Shown: positions 3,692 to 57,655 of the stretch, piece after piece | Layout: each line of letters opens with the position of its first letter | Position numbering within the stretch: position 1 is the first letter of the stretch | From: Candidatus Woesearchaeota archaeon | Lineage (GTDB): Archaea; Nanobdellota; Nanobdellia; Woesearchaeales; JAFCFN01 | DNA: 64,000 bases | Direction: 5' to 3' | NCBI GenBank assembly: GCA_017608625.1 | Contig: JAFCFN010000002.1 | Location: 28,099-92,098, forward strand | Translations under genes and position numbers: made by a program | The notes under the pieces: model-generated | What the model was told of the DNA's origin: nothing | Seen by the model: the letters and a program-made list of their open reading frames with translations, nothing else | Database searches by the model: none

Positions 3692-4042
3692 ATGAAAAAA
3701 GCAGTTTTGCCAAGTTTAAGAGAAAAAAAAAGATATTTGGCCTTTGAAATTATCTCTCAATATAAATTTGACTTTATGACAGTTAAAAATGCTATACTAT
3801 CCAGCTGTCAACTATTTTTAGGGCAGCTAGGAATGGCTAAAGCAGGCATTATTGTATTAGCAGATAATTTTGATAATAAAAAACAAAAAGGTTTAATAAG
3901 GGTTAACAATAAATATATAAATGAACTAAAAGCATCCTTGGCTTTAATCAATAAAATAAATAATAAAAATATAATAATCAAAAGCCTGGGTGTTTCAGGT
4001 ATACTAAAAAAAGCTTATGACAAATATATAAAAGGAGGTTAA
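3692..4042 (+). CDS. rnp2: RNase P protein Rpp14/Pop5
   Basis: LPSLREKKRYLAFEI and GVSGILKKA motifs; upstream of psmA. Confidence 0.9.
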   Translation: MKKAVLPSLREKKRYLAFEIISQYKFDFMTVKNAILSSCQLFLGQLGMAKAGIIVLADNFDNKKQKGLIRVNNKYINELKASLALINKINNKNIIIKSLGVSGILKKAYDKYIKGG

Positions 4043-4044
4043 AA

Positions 4045-4782
4045 ATGGTTGAAGAAGCACCATCTCATCAATTAATGGGTTATGATAGAGCAATTACTAT
4101 GTTCTCACCAGAAGGAAGATTGTTACAAGTAGAGTATGCTAAAAAAACAGTTAGACAAGGCAGTACTGCAATTGGTGTTGTTTGTAAAGATGGAGTTTTA
4201 TTGGTTTCTGATAAAAGAATTCTGGAAAAATTGGTTGTTCCAGAAGCAATTGAAAAGATATGGCAGATAGATGATCACATAGGAGCAACAGCAGCAGGGA
4301 TACTTTCAGATGCAAGAGTATTAATAGAAAGGGCTCAGCTAAAAGCTCAACAGCATAAAGTAACTTATGATAGTCCGGTAGATGTATTAAGTATTGTTAA
4401 GGATATTTGTGATATAAAACAGATTTGCACACAAAGTGGAGGATTAAGACCTTTTGGTGTAAGCATACTGATTGCAGGAGTTGATCAAACAGGACCAAAG
4501 TTGTTTGAAACAGATCCTACCGGAATATTTTTCCAGTTCAAAGCAACTGCAATTGGAGAGGGTGAAACAGAAATAGTTGACATATTGAATAAAAAGTATA
4601 AAGAGAATATGACGATTGAAGAGGCTTTGAAGTTATGCATCTGGGCATTAGCAAGAGTTGTTCCTGATAAATTCAGTGCAGAAAGAATTGATACTGCTTA
4701 TATAAAAATAGATGAAAAACAGTTCAAAAAATTTAGTAAAGAGAAAATAGAAAAGATCGTAAAAGAAGTAAAGAAAAAATAA
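4045..4782 (+). CDS. psmA: Proteasome subunit alpha
   Basis: GYDRAITMFSPEGRLLQVEYA signature; SD GGAGGT upstream. Confidence 0.98.
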   Translation: MVEEAPSHQLMGYDRAITMFSPEGRLLQVEYAKKTVRQGSTAIGVVCKDGVLLVSDKRILEKLVVPEAIEKIWQIDDHIGATAAGILSDARVLIERAQLKAQQHKVTYDSPVDVLSIVKDICDIKQICTQSGGLRPFGVSILIAGVDQTGPKLFETDPTGIFFQFKATAIGEGETEIVDILNKKYKENMTIEEALKLCIWALARVVPDKFSAERIDTAYIKIDEKQFKKFSKEKIEKIVKEVKKK

Positions 4783-4783
4783 A

Positions 4784-5485
4784 ATGCAAAGAGTACATGA
4801 TAAAGAAAAGACTAAACTAACAGTAGCTAGATTAAAAAAAGATGGAGAAAATTTTGAAGTAAGTGTTGATTCAGAAGCTGCAATTAGGTTTAAGAAAGGT
4901 TTAGGGGATTTCAGTGAGGTTCTTAAAAATGAGAATATTTGGGCTAATGCAAAAAAAGGTCAGCTTGCATCTGAAAAAAAATTAAGAGCTGTTTTTAAAA
5001 CAGATGACAAAATTGAGATTGCTAAAACAATAGTAAAAGAAGGAGAAATACAACTAACAGCAGAATACAGAGCTAAGCAATTAGAAGAGAAAAAAAAGAG
5101 AATTATAGAAACAATTCATAGAAATGCTATTGACCCAAGAACAAATGCAGCTATTCCTATAACAAGACTTGAAAATGCATTTAAAGAAGCAAAAGTAAGG
5201 ATTGATGAGAGACCAATTGACCAACAGATGCAAGACATAATAAATAAATTGAGACCTGTTCTTCCGATAAGGTTTGAAATAAAAAAGATACAAGCTGTTA
5301 TTCCTGCTCAATATGCAGTAAAAAGTTATCATATCTTAAAAACATATAAAATATTGGAAGAAGAGTGGCAGAATGATGGTAGTTTAAAGGTAAGTATTGA
5401 GCTGCCGTCTGCTATGCAAAATGATTTTTTTGATAAAATAAATAGTGCAACACATGGCAGTGTTGAGACAAAGGAGATAAAATAA
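4784..5485 (+). CDS. Ribosome maturation factor SBDS/Sdo1
   Basis: ARLKKDGENFEV, GEIQLTAEYR and NAIDPRT motifs; conserved synteny. Confidence 0.95.
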   Translation: MQRVHDKEKTKLTVARLKKDGENFEVSVDSEAAIRFKKGLGDFSEVLKNENIWANAKKGQLASEKKLRAVFKTDDKIEIAKTIVKEGEIQLTAEYRAKQLEEKKKRIIETIHRNAIDPRTNAAIPITRLENAFKEAKVRIDERPIDQQMQDIINKLRPVLPIRFEIKKIQAVIPAQYAVKSYHILKTYKILEEEWQNDGSLKVSIELPSAMQNDFFDKINSATHGSVETKEIK

Positions 5486-5546
5486 AAGTAGGCTTTTTCT
5501 TTCTTTTAGAAAAAGAAAGAAAAATCCCACACGGCAAAAAGAAAGA

Positions 5547-5587
5547 AAAGGGGACTAAGCGAACAAACAAGCAATGTCGCCTAAACG
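5547..5587 (+). repeat. Structured dispersed repeat, family A, copy 3 (core)
   Basis: AAAGGGGACTAAGCGAACAAACAAGCAATGTCGCCTAAACG closely matches the core of the copies at 11243-11308 and 25704-25777. Confidence 0.85.
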
Positions 5588-5622
5588 ATCAACCCGTTTG
5601 TGGGTTGTGGAGATAAAATAAA

Positions 5623-6318
5623 ATGGGAAAATTACTAGTTAAGGAAAAAGAAGTTGTAGTTCCTGGAGAGGATCTGGCAGAAGGTATGGATCTTTTACCA
5701 GGCGAAGGCTGTTATAGAGATGAAAACAAAATAGTTGCTGCAAGATTGGGATTGGTTAAAGTAGGTGGCAGATTAATAAAATTAATACCTCTATCAGGAA
5801 AATATCTACCAAAGAAAAATGATGTTATTATTGGTAAAATAACAGAAATAACATTAATGGGATGGAGAGTTGATACTAATTCTGCTTATCCTGCAATGTT
5901 GTCTTTAAGAGATGCAACATCAGAGTATATAGCAAAAGGAGCTAATTTATCGCAATATTACGCAATAGGAGATTACATTGTTGCCAAAATAACTAATGTT
6001 ACATCTCAAAATCTAGTTGATTTAACAACAAAAGGTCCTGGATTACATAAACTAAAAGGTGGCAGAATAATCTCTGTTCAACCTACAAAAGTGCCAAGAA
6101 TAATTGGAAAAGCAGGGAGCATGGTTAATATGATAAAAAAAGCAACTAACTCAAAAATAATTGTTGGCCAAAATGGTCTAGTATGGATTCAAGCTGAGCC
6201 GAAAATGGAGTTGATTGCTGTTGAGGCAATAAGAATGATAGAAAAATATGCTCATGTTGAAGGTTTAACAGACAAAGTAAAAGAGTTTTTAGACAAAGCA
6301 ATTAAAGGTGGGAGATAA
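5623..6318 (+). CDS. rrp4: Exosome RNA-binding subunit Rrp4
   Basis: VVVPGEDLA; S1 and KH domains (VPRIIGKAGSM). Confidence 0.96.
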   Translation: MGKLLVKEKEVVVPGEDLAEGMDLLPGEGCYRDENKIVAARLGLVKVGGRLIKLIPLSGKYLPKKNDVIIGKITEITLMGWRVDTNSAYPAMLSLRDATSEYIAKGANLSQYYAIGDYIVAKITNVTSQNLVDLTTKGPGLHKLKGGRIISVQPTKVPRIIGKAGSMVNMIKKATNSKIIVGQNGLVWIQAEPKMELIAVEAIRMIEKYAHVEGLTDKVKEFLDKAIKGGR

Positions 6319-6319
6319 G

Positions 6320-7018
6320 ATGTCATACAAAAGAAAAGATAGAGCATTAGATGAACCTAGAGCTATAGAAGCAAAGGTTGGTGTAATCAAAAGAGCTGAT
6401 GGATCTGCAATGTTTAAGATAGGTAAAACAACAGCTTATGCTGCTGTTTATGGACCTCGAAATATATATCCTAGATTTTTAGCTGATCCTACAAAAGGTA
6501 TTTTAAGAGCTTCTTATGCAATGATGCCTTTTGCAGGTGTTGGAGAGAGGGTAAGACCTGGACCGAATAGAAGAAGTAGAGAAATAGCTTTAGTGACTGA
6601 GCAGGCTTTACTGCCAGTTCTTGATTTATCAGAGTTTCCAAATTCTGTTATTGATGTTATAGTTGAGCTTCCTCAAACAGACGCTGGAACAAGATGTGCT
6701 GGAATATGTGCAGCTGCAATGGCACTAGCTGATGCTGGTTTAACAATGAAAGATTTAGTAGCAGCTGTTGCTGTTGGTTGCATAGATGGAACACCTATTG
6801 TTGATTTGAGTAAGGAGGAGGAAGATTATGAAGGAGAAGTTGCTGATATTCCTATTGCTGTTTTGCCAAGAAGTGGTAAGATTTCATTATTGCAACTGGA
6901 TGGAGAGATTGATAAAGAGAATTTAATGAAGGCGATTGAAATGGGTAAAAAAGTTTGCAGAAAGATTTATCAGATTCAGAAAGCAGCACTCAAGAAAAAA
7001 TATGAGGTGACAAAATGA
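6320..7018 (+). CDS. rrp41: Exosome core subunit Rrp41
   Basis: RNase PH fold (RADGSA, DAGTRCAGI); start moved to ATG 6320 just after the rrp4 stop. Confidence 0.96.
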   Translation: MSYKRKDRALDEPRAIEAKVGVIKRADGSAMFKIGKTTAYAAVYGPRNIYPRFLADPTKGILRASYAMMPFAGVGERVRPGPNRRSREIALVTEQALLPVLDLSEFPNSVIDVIVELPQTDAGTRCAGICAAAMALADAGLTMKDLVAAVAVGCIDGTPIVDLSKEEEDYEGEVADIPIAVLPRSGKISLLQLDGEIDKENLMKAIEMGKKVCRKIYQIQKAALKKKYEVTK

Positions 7019-7794
7019 ACTACAGAGAAGCAAAAGAGCATATAGAAGGTTTGTTGAATCAAGGAATAAGGTTAGATGGTAGAAAGTTAACTGAGTATAG
7101 AAAACCGATTAAAGTAGAACCTGGTTTTATAGAAACAGCAGAAGGTTCTGCAAGAGTAATCATAGGGGAAACAGAGGTTATTGTTGGAGTAAAGATGGCT
7201 GTTGAAGAACCTTACCCAGACACTCCTGATCAAGGTAATTTAATGGTTGGTGCAGAGTTAACACCTTTATCAAATCCTGAGTTTGAGTCAGGACCTCCTG
7301 GAATACAAGCAATTGAGCTTGCAAGGGTTATTGATAGAGGTATTAGGGAAAGTAAAATGATTGACTCAAAAAAATTATGTATTAAAAAAGGAGAGAAAGT
7401 TTGGGCTGTTATGATTGATATAAGCCCTATAAATGATGCAGGTAATTTATTTGATGCTGGTGCTTTAGGAGCAATAGCTGCTTTGAAAAGCACAAGATTT
7501 CCTGAGTATGATGGAGAAAAAGTAAATTATAAAAAACATACAAACAAAAAGTTACCTTTAAATAAAATCCCAATATCTGTTACTGTACATAAAATAGGTG
7601 AACATTTAATTATTGATCCTCTGACAGAGGAAGAGAATGTAAGTGATGCAAGATTAACAGTAGTGGTAAGAGATGATGGAAAAATTTGCGCTTTACAAAA
7701 AGGAGGAAGCATGCCTTTAAGTTCAGAGGAATTAGATTCTATGCTTAAGTTGGGTGCTGAAAAAAGTAAAGAATTAAGAAAATTTATTGAATAA
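7015..7794 (+). CDS. rrp42: Exosome core subunit Rrp42
   Basis: GIRLDGRKLTEYR, TAEGSARV and ELARVIDRGIRES motifs. Confidence 0.96.
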   Translation: MNYREAKEHIEGLLNQGIRLDGRKLTEYRKPIKVEPGFIETAEGSARVIIGETEVIVGVKMAVEEPYPDTPDQGNLMVGAELTPLSNPEFESGPPGIQAIELARVIDRGIRESKMIDSKKLCIKKGEKVWAVMIDISPINDAGNLFDAGALGAIAALKSTRFPEYDGEKVNYKKHTNKKLPLNKIPISVTVHKIGEHLIIDPLTEEENVSDARLTVVVRDDGKICALQKGGSMPLSSEELDSMLKLGAEKSKELRKFIE

Positions 7795-7814
7795 GTTGTA
7801 AAAGGAGGTAAAGC

Positions 7815-8021
7815 ATGGTTGAGAAATACACAAAATATGAAAAAGCAAGAATAATTGGTGCAAGAGCATTGCAGATAGCAATGGGTGCTCCTTATCTAAT
7901 AAAACTTAGCAAGGAGGATTTGGAGAAAATAAAGTTTAATCCTATTGAAATTGCAAAAATGGAATTTGAGGAAGATGTAATCCCTATTACTGTTAAAAGA
8001 CCTTTACCTAAACGCAGTTAG
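7815..8021 (+). CDS. rpoK: RNA polymerase subunit K (Rpo6)
   Basis: [21 protein letters not shown] signature. Confidence 0.97.
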
Positions 8022-10711: not shown

Positions 10712-11242
10712 TTATTCCTTTTTAGCAGCTAACTCAGCAGCTGTTGGAACTTTTTCAGGTTTTTTCTCTTTTTCTTCTTCCTTTGGTTTGGTTTCTTCTT
10801 TCTGAGCAGGTTTTTCTTCTTTAACTTTTTCTTCTTTCTTTTCTTTAACATTCTTCTCCTCAGCCTTTGCCTCTTCCTTCTTCTCCTCATTCTTTTCTGC
10901 AGGTTTTGTCTCTTTCTTTTTTTCTTCTTTTGCTTCAGGCTTTTTAGCAACCTCTTTGATAGGTTTACCAATTAACTCTGCCTTAACCAAACCTTTATCA
11001 TCTTTTATAGCATTTATTTTAATATGATGAGGAGGATTTCTCATTCCTCTTTGCCAGATTGCTTCATTAAGATATTTACCAATTTTAATATTGTCTGATT
11101 TCATATGTTTAATTAGAAATTGTTTTAGAGCTGTTATTGCTTTTTTAGCTCTTTTGTATTTTGGAACTTTAAGCCATTCTTTTCTAAGAGGAACATTATA
11201 AGTTCTTTCCAATACTATTTTTGGAGTTGTTTCTTTTGCCAT
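10712..11242 (-). CDS. rpl31e: 50S ribosomal protein L31e with long Lys/Glu-rich C-terminal tail
   Basis: ERTYNVPLRK, RAKKAI and IWQRGMRNPP motifs followed by low-complexity tail. Confidence 0.95.
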   Translation of the reverse strand: MAKETTPKIVLERTYNVPLRKEWLKVPKYKRAKKAITALKQFLIKHMKSDNIKIGKYLNEAIWQRGMRNPPHHIKINAIKDDKGLVKAELIGKPIKEVAKKPEAKEEKKKETKPAEKNEEKKEEAKAEEKNVKEKKEEKVKEEKPAQKEETKPKEEEKEKKPEKVPTAAELAAKKE

Positions 11243-11308
11243 AACCGTTAGCCAGTTAACGTCTGGGGAACATTGTTTGTTTGTTCGCTTAGTTCCCCTT
11301 TGTTAACC
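11243..11308 (-). repeat. Structured dispersed repeat, family A, copy 1 (between SD and ATG of rpl31e)
   Basis: GGTTAAC-AAA-GGGGAAC-N20-GTTCCCC-AGAC-GTTAACT-GGCTAAC-GGTT, immediately followed by ATG. Confidence 0.9.
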
Positions 11309-25130: not shown

Positions 25131-25703
25131 TTAGACTCCAACAAACAACAAATGTTTTTCTTTACCTTCTAATTCAGCAAGGATCCTTTTTATGATAATC
25201 TCTTCAGGATTAGGTATTAACTTAACTCTCTTTTTGATGTCTTCAAAACTCTCAAATGGTTTCTCCTTCCTTGCTTCAATTATTTCCCACATGTGTTTTT
25301 TGCCTATTCCTGGCAGTAGCTCTATCTGATGAATCCTTGTACTTAATGGTTGTGCTTTGTTGAAGAAATCCACAAACCTCTGCTCATTTTTCTCAACAAG
25401 GTCTTTAATTACAAATTTTAATTCATTCCTTGCTGTTGCAGTGAGTTTGTTAAAGGGTAACTTACCTAGTATGTGATGTATTTTATCCCTTTTTTCTGTA
25501 CCTATATAAACCTCTTCATAAGGTTGTAAAAAAACATCCTTTTTTGGAACTAACTCCAATAATGTAAAGTGATCTTTACCAATTGCTTGAGCAATGGCTG
25601 TTTTTCTGTGAGCAGGTCTAGGATCAAAAGGATAACCATGCGGCAGATAGTCTAGTACAATTACCCATTCTTCTCTTGGCCTTTCTTTTTTTTCAACTAT
25701 CAT
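25131..25703 (-). CDS. DUF655 predicted RNA-binding protein
   Basis: VLDYLPHG, FTLLEL and ELLPGIGKK motifs; follows rpl21e-rpoF. Confidence 0.93.
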   Translation of the reverse strand: MIVEKKERPREEWVIVLDYLPHGYPFDPRPAHRKTAIAQAIGKDHFTLLELVPKKDVFLQPYEEVYIGTEKRDKIHHILGKLPFNKLTATARNELKFVIKDLVEKNEQRFVDFFNKAQPLSTRIHQIELLPGIGKKHMWEIIEARKEKPFESFEDIKKRVKLIPNPEEIIIKRILAELEGKEKHLLFVGV

Positions 25704-25777
25704 AACCGTTAGCCAGTTAACGTCTGGGCGACATGCGCTCGCAACAAAGTTGCTCGCTTAGTCCCCCTTTGTTAACC
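25704..25777 (-). repeat. Structured dispersed repeat, family A, copy 2 (between SD and ATG of DUF655 gene)
   Basis: 28 nt (plus strand CATAACCGTTAGCCAGTTAACGTCTGGG, start codon included) identical to copy 1; far end also near-identical. Confidence 0.9.
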
Positions 25778-31616: not shown

Positions 31617-31754
31617 GGGCCCGTGGTCTAGTGACTCAAGCAAAAATATTTGCTTGTTGCTAGATGCTATGACAACGCCCTTACAAGGCGTAGGTCACCG
31701 GTTCGAATAAACCAAAATAAATTAATAGTGGTTATGAAACTCCGGTCGGGCCCA
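31617..31754 (+). tRNA. tRNA-Val(TAC) with introns in the D-loop (31634-31665) and at 59/60 (31708-31740)
   Basis: Removing both BHB-flanked inserts (central helices CUAG/CUAG and UUCG/UGAA) gives a standard cloverleaf; anticodon at 31682-31684. Confidence 0.92.
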
Positions 31755-32228: not shown

Positions 32229-32241
32229 TATTTAATATTAT

Positions 32242-32346
32242 GCCCCGGTGGTGTAGTCCGGCCAAGCATAATGGCTTTTCGAGCCATTGACATGGGTTCA
32301 AATTTTGTAGGTTAATGCTTACATAATGAAATTCCCGTCCGGGGCA
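32242..32346 (+). tRNA. tRNA-Glu(TTC) with intron at 59/60 (32303-32332)
   Basis: ATGGC-TTTTCGA-GCCAT anticodon arm; BHB helix UUCA/UGAA. Confidence 0.92.
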
Positions 32347-32672: not shown

Positions 32673-34135
32673 ATTCCCGTTGATTCTGCGGGAGGTTGCT
32701 GCTATCTGGTTGAGACTAAGCCATGCAAGTCTGCTTCTCTTCGGAGAGGCGGCGAACTGCTCAGTAACACGTCGGTAATCTGCCCTTAGGTCCAGGATAA
32801 CCTTGGGAAACTGAGGCTAAACCTGGATAGGAGATTGAAATTAGAAAATTCTTTCTCTGAAAAGAAATGCCTAAGGATGAGCCGGCGGCTGATTAGGCTG
32901 TTGGTGGTGTAATGGACCACCAAACCTACGATCAGTACGGGCCTTGAGAGAGGGAGCCCGGAGAAGGGTACTGAGAAACTGATCCTAGCCCTACGGGGTG
33001 CAGCAGGCGCGAAACTTCCACAATGCACGCAAGTGTGATGGAGTCAACCAGAGTGCTCATGTTCTCATGGGCTTTTGCCAAGAGTAAATATCTTGGCGAA
33101 TAAGGGGTGGGCAAGACTGGTGCCAGCCGCCGCGGTAACACCAGCGCCCCAAGTGGGAACCGCTTTTATTGGGCCTAAAGCATCCGTAGCCGGTTCAACA
33201 AATCTTCTGTGAAATTGTTGGACTTAATCTAACAACGTGCAGAAGACACTGTTGAACTTGGAACTGGGAGGAGTTAGAGGTATTTCGGGGGGAGCGGTAA
33301 AATGCTATAATCCCCGAAAGACCACCTGTGGCGAAGGCGTCTAACTAGAACAGCTTCGACGGTGAGGGATGAAAGCTAGGGGAGCAAACCGGATTAGATA
33401 CCCGAGTAGTCCTAGCCGTAAACACTGCGAGCTAGATGTTGCATCTTCTTAGGGAATATGCAGCATCGAAACGAAGGTGCTAAGCTCGCCGCCTGGGAAG
33501 TATAGTCGCAAGACCGAAACTTAAAGAAATTGGCGGGGGAGCGCCACAACGAGTGCGGCGTGCGGTTTAATCTAATTCAACGCAGATAACCTCACCAGGG
33601 GCGACGGCAGAATGAAGGTCAGTCTGAAGGGCTTACCTAACAAGCCGAGAGGTATTGCATGGCCGCCGTCAGCTAGTGTCGTGAGATGTCCTGTTAAGTC
33701 AGGTAACTAGCGAGACCTATATCTACAATTGCTACCAAGCTATGCGATTGGGCACATTGTAGAGACTGCCTGGGAAACCAGGAGGAAGGTGTAGGCGACG
33801 GTAGGTCTGTATGGTCCGAATCTCCTGGGCTACACGCGCGCAACAATGGTAGGGACAATGGGATGCAACTCCGAGAGGAGAAGCTAAACCTCTAAACCCT
33901 ATTTTAGTTCAGATTGAGGTTTGCAACTCAACCTCATGACGTCGGAATTCGTAGTAATCAGGCTTAAGCATAGCCCGGTGAATATGTCCCCGCTCCTTGC
34001 ACACACCGCCCGTCATCCCAGCCGAGCAGGGTTTAGGTGAGACTTAGTTTTTGACTAAGGCGAATCTAAACTCAGTGAGGAGGGGCAAGTCGTCACAAGG
34101 TAACCGTAGGGGAACCTGCGGTTGGATCACCTCCT
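32673..34135 (+). rRNA. rrs: 16S rRNA (archaeal, no intron seen)
   Basis: ATTCCCGTTGATTCTGCG start, GTGCCAGCCGCCGCGGTAA, TTGCACACACCGCCCGTC and 3' GGATCACCTCCT; flanks 32637-32655 and 34142-34160 form a perfect 19-bp processing stem. Confidence 0.98.
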
Positions 34136-34168
34136 TTTTACTTCAATCAAATAACTCTTATGTTCAAT

Positions 34169-34307
34169 GGGCCTGTAGTTCAGTCTGGAAGAACATCGCC
34201 CTTGCAAGGAAAGAGAGTGTTTTATCATTTCTTTCCAAAGCAAGGCGGGGGTCACGGGTTCAAAACAATTACTCGTTTGAGTAATTATGAATTTCCCGTC
34301 GGGTCCA
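34169..34307 (+). tRNA. tRNA-Ala(TGC) in the rRNA spacer, introns at 37/38 (34207-34242) and 59/60 (34265-34293)
   Basis: G3:U70 pair, anticodon TGC, BHB-like flanks. Confidence 0.92.
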
Positions 34308-34399
34308 TTTTTTAGATTAAGTTTTATGCAATTCAAAAGCTTAGCTTTTGAATGAAGGGTAAAGACTTCATGTTTATGATACCATGCATAGATTAAAAG

Positions 34400-38842: not shown

Positions 38843-38959
38843 AGCCCTGTGGTGTAGTGGTCAAGCATTGCTGGCTCTGGCCCAGTAGACCCAGGTTCGA
38901 ATCAACCGTGAAATCAGTACTGCTTTACATTCGCGGTTACGAGTCTCCTGGCAGGGCTA
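38843..38959 (+). tRNA. tRNA-Gln(CTG) with intron at 59/60 (38902-38945)
   Basis: GCTGG-CTCTGGC-CCAGT anticodon arm; BHB helix UUCG/CGAG. Confidence 0.92.
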
Positions 38960-57442: not shown

Positions 57443-57655
57443 TGCGGGGAGGAGGAATTTCGTATAACCGCAAAGGGGACTTCGGTTGCTGAAGGCAACT
57501 AGAAGTCGCCTAAAGCGTTAACCGATTTTGCGGTTAATTCGAACCCCCGTAGGCACTAAGCCAACAGGTTGCCTACACATGAAGTGGCCTAAGCTTAGAC
57601 TTTTCTAAAAATTGATTAGGATAACTGTCCCGTTTGACCACTCCGGCATCCCCGC
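57443..57655 (-). tRNA. tRNA-Leu(TAG) with three introns: 30/31 (57595-57624), 37/38 (18 nt), 59/60 (57457-57537)
   Basis: BHB helices GGAC/GUCU, CUUA/UAGG and UUCG/CGAA; long variable arm; acceptor GCGGGGA/TCCCCGC. Confidence 0.9.

Follow-up and report, generated by a model that had tools for sequence, protein, structure and literature searches.

We know of no settled account of the origin of non-canonical archaeal tRNA introns. Their fate in the transcript is established knowledge, since archaeal introns are cleaved out by EndA and the exons are ligated by RtcB. In the Thermoproteales, transposition of tRNA introns has been inferred, by a mechanism given as unknown (Fujishima et al. 2010, as summarised in PMC4090602). 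As far as that summary goes, similar introns occupy non-canonical positions in different tRNA genes within the same genome, their removal needs only a bulge-helix-bulge motif, and gain after speciation is inferred. The T-loop introns described here resemble the Thermoproteales introns in these respects. What is new with respect to this precedent is the DPANN lineage (Woesearchaeota), an empty site, the occurrence of family members also outside tRNA genes, and their opposite orientation relative to the host transcript; moreover, all copies in tRNA genes are at one position, 59/60. To our knowledge, family members outside tRNA genes have not been reported for the Thermoproteales.

Among prokaryotic MITEs and small intergenic repeats, Correia/NEMIS, REP and ERIC sequences are comparable. 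The element of this work is like them in being small, non-coding and hairpin-forming, in being scattered over intergenic spacers, in many cases presumably on one transcript with the following gene, and in its variable presence. In contrast to them, it has no common terminal inverted repeat, no fixed duplication and no cognate transposase, and its copies are very few. The introner elements of eukaryotes are transposon-derived spliceosomal introns. In both cases, the inserted repeat and target or target-duplicated sequence would together supply what host splicing needs, so that insertion is harmless. Here, however, a protein endonuclease and a bulge-helix-bulge motif take the place of the spliceosome, the hosts are tRNA genes, and copies are few. 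Finally, disruption of tRNA genes via integrating elements has been discussed (Randau and Soll 2008; Sugahara et al. 2012, PMC3293823), and PMC3293823 states that direct evidence of a link between mobile elements and the disruption of tRNA genes is lacking. This model likewise ties mobile DNA to archaeal tRNA intron gain, and direct repeats of tRNA sequence at the borders have a parallel in one of our contigs (L118, see below). It differs in that its elements are kilobases in size, encode an integrase and use attachment sites at the ends of tRNA genes, whereas the insert here measures 65-81 nt, lies inside the T-loop and comes without an integrase.

The tRNA-Leu gene and its T-loop intron

The window, by which we mean the whole 64-kb stretch of DNA that was analysed, is AT-rich (~30% G+C) and contains an archaeal 16S-23S rRNA operon. 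The nearest relatives of its proteins are proteins named Candidatus Woesearchaeota. A contig from JGI sample 3300033141 (L119) is identical to the window across the tRNA-Leu locus, and the two are therefore from the same population. ARAGORN places a tRNA-Glu(ttc) at 32241-32315, ~360 nt upstream of the 16S gene, which is absent from the Rfam results at E<=1. The 250-nt spacer between the 16S and 23S genes (34135-34386) has no detectable tRNA.

The tRNA-Leu(UAG) gene lies on the minus strand at 57443..57655 (213 nt) and contains three introns. In the raw sequence at 57.4-57.7 kb, neither ARAGORN nor Rfam finds a tRNA. Our exon model comprises 57655-57625, 57594-57588, 57569-57538 and 57456-57443 (minus strand). 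When these exons are spliced, ARAGORN calls a tRNA-Leu(tag) of 84 nt with normal arms. The interrupted gene encodes an acceptor stem of 7 bp, a D-arm, a variable arm that is long, and the T-stem GGGGG/CCUCC. Intron 1 (57624-57595, 30 nt) is at position 30/31 and has the central helix GGAC/GUCU, and intron 2 (57587-57570, 18 nt) is at the canonical position 37/38 with the central helix CUUA/UAGG. Their removal leaves the anticodon arm ACAGG-CUUAGGA-CCUGU. Intron 3 (57537-57457, 81 nt) interrupts the T-loop at position 59/60. With only intron 3 removed, ARAGORN finds a class II tRNA, which it proposes to be tRNA-Cys(gca) with one 50-nt intron. The anticodon of this candidate is misplaced, and we reject it because of the long variable arm; the solution with two introns gives the proper Leu(UAG) anticodon arm. 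The initial annotation, made from the letters of the window, was accurate in the coordinates and sequence of the 81-nt intron, in the identity of the tRNA and in the T-loop position.

The gene was searched for bulge-helix-bulge motifs, taken as 4-bp helices with 3-nt bulges on both flanks. The best candidate in the gene, GGG UUCG AA|U UAA ... CGAA AU|U CCU, excises exactly 57537->57457, and the minimum-energy fold of the precursor has the same arrangement at 59/60. The motif consists of the UUCG/CGAA helix, the bulges AAU and AUU, the T-stem outside and a 10-bp stem inside. It is a relaxed form, with two unpaired nucleotides opposite the 5' bulge. An EndA with an L3 loop and broadened specificity has been reported in DPANN lineages with many disrupted tRNA genes (PMC5829648). 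No EndA gene was identified in the window.

Read in the sense of the tRNA, intron 3 is composed of 1 nt, the reverse complement of the core of a dispersed element, and a 15-nt tail, GCGGUUAUACGAAAU, which resembles the preceding T-arm, GGGGUUCGAAU. The CGAA of this tail pairs with U54-G57 because TTCGAA is palindromic. The T-loop-like tail can thus pair with the T-loop itself, and the repeat brings its own closing stem. The GCGGUUA of the tail and the preceding UUU pair with the 5' end of the insert, which yields the 10-bp inner helix. On the plus strand, this helix corresponds to the 10-nt closing inverted repeat TAACCGCAAA/TTTGCGGTTA, with the left arm at 57465..57474 and its partner at 57527-57536. 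The arms are 100% complementary, and the repeat is as exact as had been claimed. The initial annotation had also let the element supply the intron stem. This is right for the inner helix, which is the closing stem of the element, but not for the central 4-bp helix, which comes from the T-loop and the T-loop-like tail and not from the core. With the inner helix contributed by an element that has a closing stem, it is thus the T-loop and the tail that provide the central helix and the bulges. The folds of the leader copies of the element contain no bulge-helix-bulge motif.

A dispersed repeat with two hairpins

The element is a non-coding repeat of ~60 nt (core about 55-65 nt) with two hairpins. 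The first, P1, has the form RGG-G-GAC ... GUC-G-CCY; its G.G mismatch is conserved, whereas its tip varies. It is connected by the linker YAAAGYG, also conserved, to the second, P2, of the form YAACNN-loop-NNGUUR. Most copies also have a closing helix, which is copy-specific in sequence. We count ten distinct copies in ten different contexts, four of them in the window (c1 to c4) and six elsewhere (L013, L043, L055, L060, L091 and L108), the latter all in Woesearchaeota/Nanoarchaeota contigs.

Two covariance models were used. R1 was built from nine copies, c4 not among them, and recovered c4 as a more divergent copy in the window. R2 was built from the 8 intergenic copies, and both tRNA-intron copies were left out. 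Copy c1 (5547..5607, plus strand; 75.8 bits with R2) is located in the spacer between the SBDS and Rrp4 genes (Pfam assignments), 15 nt before the Rrp4 start. The SBDS and Rrp4 genes belong to a stretch of the plus strand (4045-8021) in which the ORFs after Rrp4 have the sizes expected for Rrp41 and Rrp42, a comparison of size only. Copy c4 (11242..11300, minus strand; 34.6 bits with R1) abuts the start codon of L31e (Pfam assignment). It had been overlooked in the initial annotation, as had two further T-loop introns. Copy c2 (25703..25769, minus strand), found with both models, is in the RpoF/DUF655 spacer and abuts the DUF655 start codon; it reads as the initial annotation had quoted it. 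The 3' end of P2 in c2 and c4 overlaps with the start codon (CGGUUAUG), and GGAGGU is found just 5' of the element. In the predicted structures, folding would bring this sequence, which is like a ribosome-binding site, near the start codon. Copy c3 (57472..57536, plus strand) is antisense to tRNA-Leu and forms the core of its T-loop intron.

The paired structure is supported by the alignment of nine copies, in which 98% of cells pair, compared with 23-47% in slid controls, and compensatory changes are seen in 4 of the 12 pairs. The divergent copy c4 has GGGGAAC/GUUCCCC in P1, where the G.G mismatch is replaced by a G-C pair and a G-C pair by an A-U pair, again in a compensatory manner.

The initial annotation had described the tRNA-Leu intron as a reverse-oriented relative of the leader copies, and this is confirmed. 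R2, which contains no intron copy, assigns 54.1 bits (E=3e-13) to c3, and R1 gives 63.5 bits. The R2 match in the intron is confined to 57472-57536 (+), with nothing on the tRNA-sense strand. The core of c3 has P1 of the form RGG-G-GAC..GUC-G-CCY, the linker UAAAGCG and the P2 hairpin UUAACCG..CGGUUAA, so that the plus strand of the intron reads TAACCGCAAA-GGGGAC-hairpin-GUCGCC-UAAAGCG-UUAACCGAUUUUGCGGUUA. A comparison with shuffled sequence had been suggested: GGGGAC-N10-40-GTCGCC is present 3 times in the window and 0 times in 100 dinucleotide shuffles, and the three RGGGGAC sites of the window are all within c1, c2 and c3. In the alignment, the 3' half of c3 is close over its whole length to L055, a copy in the leader of a BatA-like gene from a different assembly. 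Similarly, c1 in the Rrp4 leader and L091 in an S15 leader from another sample are close over the whole 3' half. As far as the c1/L091 and c3/L055 alignments indicate, the likeness between copies is independent of genome or context. Copies c2 and c4 have ~95 nt in common, flanks included. The 81-base T-loop intron of tRNA-Leu thus holds, in reverse, a small repeat of hairpins that is also present just upstream of ordinary genes.

The element is rare. A scan of species-representative genomes (596 Gb) gave 72 matches, of which 68 were unrelated, mostly GC-rich bacterial sequence. The four true copies (L013, L043, L055 and L060) are all in Woesearchaeota/Nanoarchaeota assemblies. The metagenome scan added L091 and L108 and found three known copies again, and scans of viral contigs gave only chance or coding-sequence matches. 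Searches with the Rfam 15 families at gathering and permissive thresholds, which covered the window, every single copy and L060/L091, returned only noise below the gathering scores. Several known structures were considered by eye and rejected. There is no GA tandem as in a K-turn, and there are no C/D or ACA boxes as in C/D box or H/ACA RNAs. The topology is wrong for the double pseudoknot of HDV-like ribozymes, and other small ribozymes do not match either. A split-tRNA half would have a T-arm, which the element lacks. Integron attC sites and IS200/IS605-type ends do not match, the hairpins being too short or too unlike each other.

Two contigs contain further repeated sequence near a copy. 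A partial second copy, AAUGUCGCC-UAUUGUG-CCAACCGAUUGC..., is present in L013 (~4040-4110, minus strand), ~100 nt upstream of the full copy; it has no GGGGAC, and its P2 seems to be split by ~45 nt. In L043 (7050-7170, minus strand), GC-rich repeated GAGCGAGC/AAGCGAGC units lie between the element and the next gene. Words like AAGCGAGC also occur within P1 of c1, c2 and c4 and in an insertion in L118.

The element had been taken for a miniature palindromic mobile element, but the data do not establish it as a MITE. The terminal inverted repeats differ between copies: the closing helices are CCCACA/TGTGGG in c1, TAACCGCAAA/TTTGCGGTTA in c3 and GGTTAAC/GTTAAC in c2 and c4, and L108 has none. Flanking duplications are of 11 nt (L108) or 31 nt (L091) or are absent. 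The copy number is low, the species-representative genomes (596 Gb) having yielded 4 strict matches. No transposase, reverse transcriptase, other mobilising gene or cognate autonomous element was seen in those ORFs of the window that were scanned. As in a MITE family, on the other hand, copies are dispersed at non-orthologous sites and vary in presence, with empty sites in L118, L123 and L124. The element works like a MITE or a eukaryotic introner, yet it has neither the shared inverted repeats nor the fixed duplication of a MITE.

Other T-loop introns and empty sites

The initial annotation was to count as refuted if no other tRNA intron in this lineage matched the repeat, but further matching introns exist. 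One is a copy, antisense within a tRNA-Trp gene of another genome and again at 59/60 (L060/L107; 46.6 bits with R2). When 69 nt between 59 and 60 are removed, ARAGORN calls a tRNA-Trp(cca); the gene also has a 50-nt canonical intron. Its T-loop is UUCAAAU and the intron partner is UGAA, opposite UUCA, whereas the Leu intron has CGAA. The 4-nt intron partner thus co-varies with the T-loop. The same gene (L107 6121-6330, plus strand) has an unusually long stretch, UGUCCGCAAGGACAC, in place of a class I variable loop, which may be a third small intron. The neighbourhoods of aIF5A homologues (L125-L128) contain no syntenic tRNA-Trp.

Within the window, a search for GGTTCRAWT led to two more tRNA genes, both missed by ARAGORN and Rfam. 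The tRNA-Gln(CUG) gene (38843-38959, plus strand) is called as Gln(ctg) by ARAGORN after intron removal. Its 59/60 intron (38902..38945, 44 nt, plus strand) aligns with the antisense of linker and P2, and P1 is missing, which is what excision of this hairpin would leave. The score of its 5' 26 nt against the Leu intron was reached by 16 of 2000 shuffles, and the two introns are probably related. The tRNA-Val(UAC) gene (31617-31754, plus strand) has a ~30-nt intron in the D-region and a 59/60 intron (31708..31740, 33 nt, plus strand), of which only the AACC/GGUU closing hairpin and the tail resemble the others; taken alone, its likeness is not significant in the shuffle test. The three 59/60 introns of the window start with N-YAACC and end in G(C/U)GGUUA-(0-2 nt)-YGAR-NN. 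Probably related introns are thus found in one genome in tRNA genes of different identity, Leu and Gln, with Val sharing the ends only. One sequence family is seen in intergenic spacers and as a tRNA intron, in the latter case complete and probably also in a decayed state. The T-loop complement is separated from U60 by exactly 2 nt in all four T-loop introns. Such a constant distance is not what a plain target duplication yields, so movement as a ready-made intron fits better.

Relatives provide empty sites. Contig L118 has the same gene order as the window, a similar spacer upstream of the S-layer gene, and 67% identity in the S-layer protein. It begins inside the orthologous tRNA-Leu gene and reads UACGGGGGUUCGAAUCCUCCUCUCCGCA, with the uninterrupted T-arm GGGGGTTCGAATCCTCC. 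In this one orthologue, of the kind that the initial annotation had proposed to inspect, the 59/60 intron is absent. With one orthologous tRNA-Leu compared, the difference may reflect loss in L118 instead of gain here. More distant S-layer homologues (L120 and L122, 49% identity) have no tRNA upstream. At the DUF655 site, c2 is absent from three relatives (L001, L123 and L124) with 82-87% protein identity. The spacer without the element measures 47 nt in L123 (82% identity) and 28 nt in L124 (87% identity), while L001 (87% identity) has another, unrelated insertion at the DUF655 start. L001, the closest relative, has no copy of the element in 20 kb.

Clear flanking repeats are found at 2 of the 10 copies. 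A direct repeat of 11 nt, without mismatch, borders the copy in L108 (54 nt) at either end, and the insert in L091 is flanked by a 31-nt repeat with 94% identity. No target duplication was detected at c1, c2 or c4. Unrelated small insertions in the relatives also carry repeats, of 25 nt in L118 and 35 nt in L001. In L118 (1-132), the intact tRNA-Leu is followed by a 76-nt insertion, unrelated in sequence to the element, and then by the 25-nt repeat of the tRNA 3' end, which starts at the GGTT of the T-arm (GGTTCGAATCC... compared with GGTGGGAATCC...). In L001 (9831-10035), the DUF655 start is perfectly duplicated over 35 nt around the unrelated 135-nt insertion, and the upstream repeat copy opens an ORF of 57 codons. 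This insertion holds, in reverse, AGTCGGCAAAAGCGTTAA, an 18-nt match to c3 that neither R1 nor R2 detects.

Of the eight intergenic copies, seven have the orientation of the gene that follows, and of all 10 copies, 9 fold more stably on the sense strand, which suggests selection on RNA and not neutral insertion. The element could therefore be primarily a functional RNA module in mRNA leaders, for instance a hairpin for stabilisation or processing, a site for protein binding, or a spacer of defined structure that separates ribosome-binding site and start codon. It would be kept by selection and sometimes duplicated, with the tRNA-intron copies as by-products. The position of the sense copies directly before a gene fits such a module, as do the covariation in support of the structure, the conserved G.G mismatch of P1, and the ends of c2 and c4, which share GGAGGU on the 5' side and finish in GGUUAUG, start codon included. 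However, the downstream genes are unrelated (Rrp4, L31e, DUF655, S15, BatA-like, T2SS-F-like and an unknown membrane protein), the copy in L108 is antisense to its neighbours, and there is no Rfam match. A cis-regulatory leader would be conserved in orthologous leaders of one gene family, and the DUF655 leaders of L001, L123 and L124 lack the element. We consider a primary role as a leader module a serious rival reading, but an unlikely one. The term leader element, as used in the initial annotation, is apt for the position but not for a proven function, since the copy is not kept at the orthologous DUF655 site.

Origin of the T-loop introns

The reading that we favour, and hold to be rather probable, is that a low-copy, non-autonomous dispersed element becomes a T-loop intron. 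It starts from the membership of the intron in the family, its orientation, the geometry of the splice motif, the empty orthologous sites and the recurrence in a second genome. Insertion at the level of DNA, the direction from element to intron and actual splicing are what we infer from them. The direct link between a mobile repeat and tRNA intron gain that the initial annotation had drawn is strengthened in part, by the empty site in L118 and by the antisense copy in tRNA-Trp at 59/60, but the direction and the mechanism of movement belong to the inferred part.

In the proposed scenario, copies of the element would arise at new sites in the DNA, for the most part in the short spacers that precede genes and that may tolerate a compact hairpin. 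Occasionally, a copy would enter a tRNA gene at 59/60, and in the cases seen it is always antisense to the tRNA. The T-loop is the most conserved sequence common to tRNA genes. In the predicted fold, the T-stem stacks on a 4-bp helix formed by U54-G57 (UUCG) of the T-loop and CGAA of the T-loop-like 3' tail, the cleavage sites lie in two 3-nt bulges, and the closing stem of the element (UAACCGCAAA/UUUGCGGUUA) serves as the inner helix. By analogy with other archaeal introns, EndA would make its two cuts after A59 and in front of U60, and ligation of the exons by RtcB would yield a normal tRNA-Leu(UAG). The T-loop intron may later be copied to other tRNA genes. Its interior would be free to decay, which would account for the lack of P1 in the Gln intron and, with less certainty, for the Val intron with the closing hairpin only.

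The direction could also be the reverse. The T-loop intron would then be the source, and excised intron RNA, abundant and probably circular, or intron DNA by way of recombination, would have been copied elsewhere to give the intergenic copies. Three T-loop introns with related ends in one 64-kb window and a fourth in another genome agree with this, the invariable spacing of 2 nt and the co-variation of the 4-nt T-loop complement point to a unit that is fitted to the T-loop, and small insertions in these genomes have flanking repeats of variable length (11 to 35 nt). Yet the intergenic copies have no T-loop-like tail, the Gln and Val introns look like decayed derivatives rather than sources, and no reverse transcriptase was seen among the window ORFs scanned. 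Moreover, where helices contain G.U pairs, these speak for the strand complementary to the intron RNA, even in the intron copies. On balance, we regard an intron as the source of the family as quite improbable. A chance likeness of GC-rich hairpins in an AT-rich genome can be dismissed as practically negligible. In its favour, some pairwise local alignments are weak (the c2 to c3 score was reached by 23 of 500 shuffles), but the shuffle counts for the motif, the pairing of the alignment, the R2 score of c3 and the full-length match of its 3' half to L055 from another genome refute it.

An element that becomes a T-loop intron may tentatively be compared with the introners. It could be their archaeal counterpart, a tiny non-autonomous repeat that makes new bulge-helix-bulge introns on entering the T-loop, although here our confidence falls somewhat short of an even judgement. 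If this is true, a route by which non-canonical tRNA introns are gained would be open to direct observation. Such introns could also be why standard tools fail to report some tRNA genes of DPANN genomes. Four tRNA genes were found in the window, and three of them (Leu, Gln and Val) are hidden by these introns from ARAGORN and from Rfam at the gathering threshold. Of 123 complete Woesearchaeales genomes, 30 are reported to lack tRNA-Trp (bioRxiv 10.64898/2026.05.13.725050). The incomplete tRNA sets reported for Woesearchaeales may therefore be annotation gaps. With an empty orthologous site and three states of one family, the question of intron origin becomes testable in a defined lineage, which should be of interest for work on archaeal tRNA genes and on mobile DNA.
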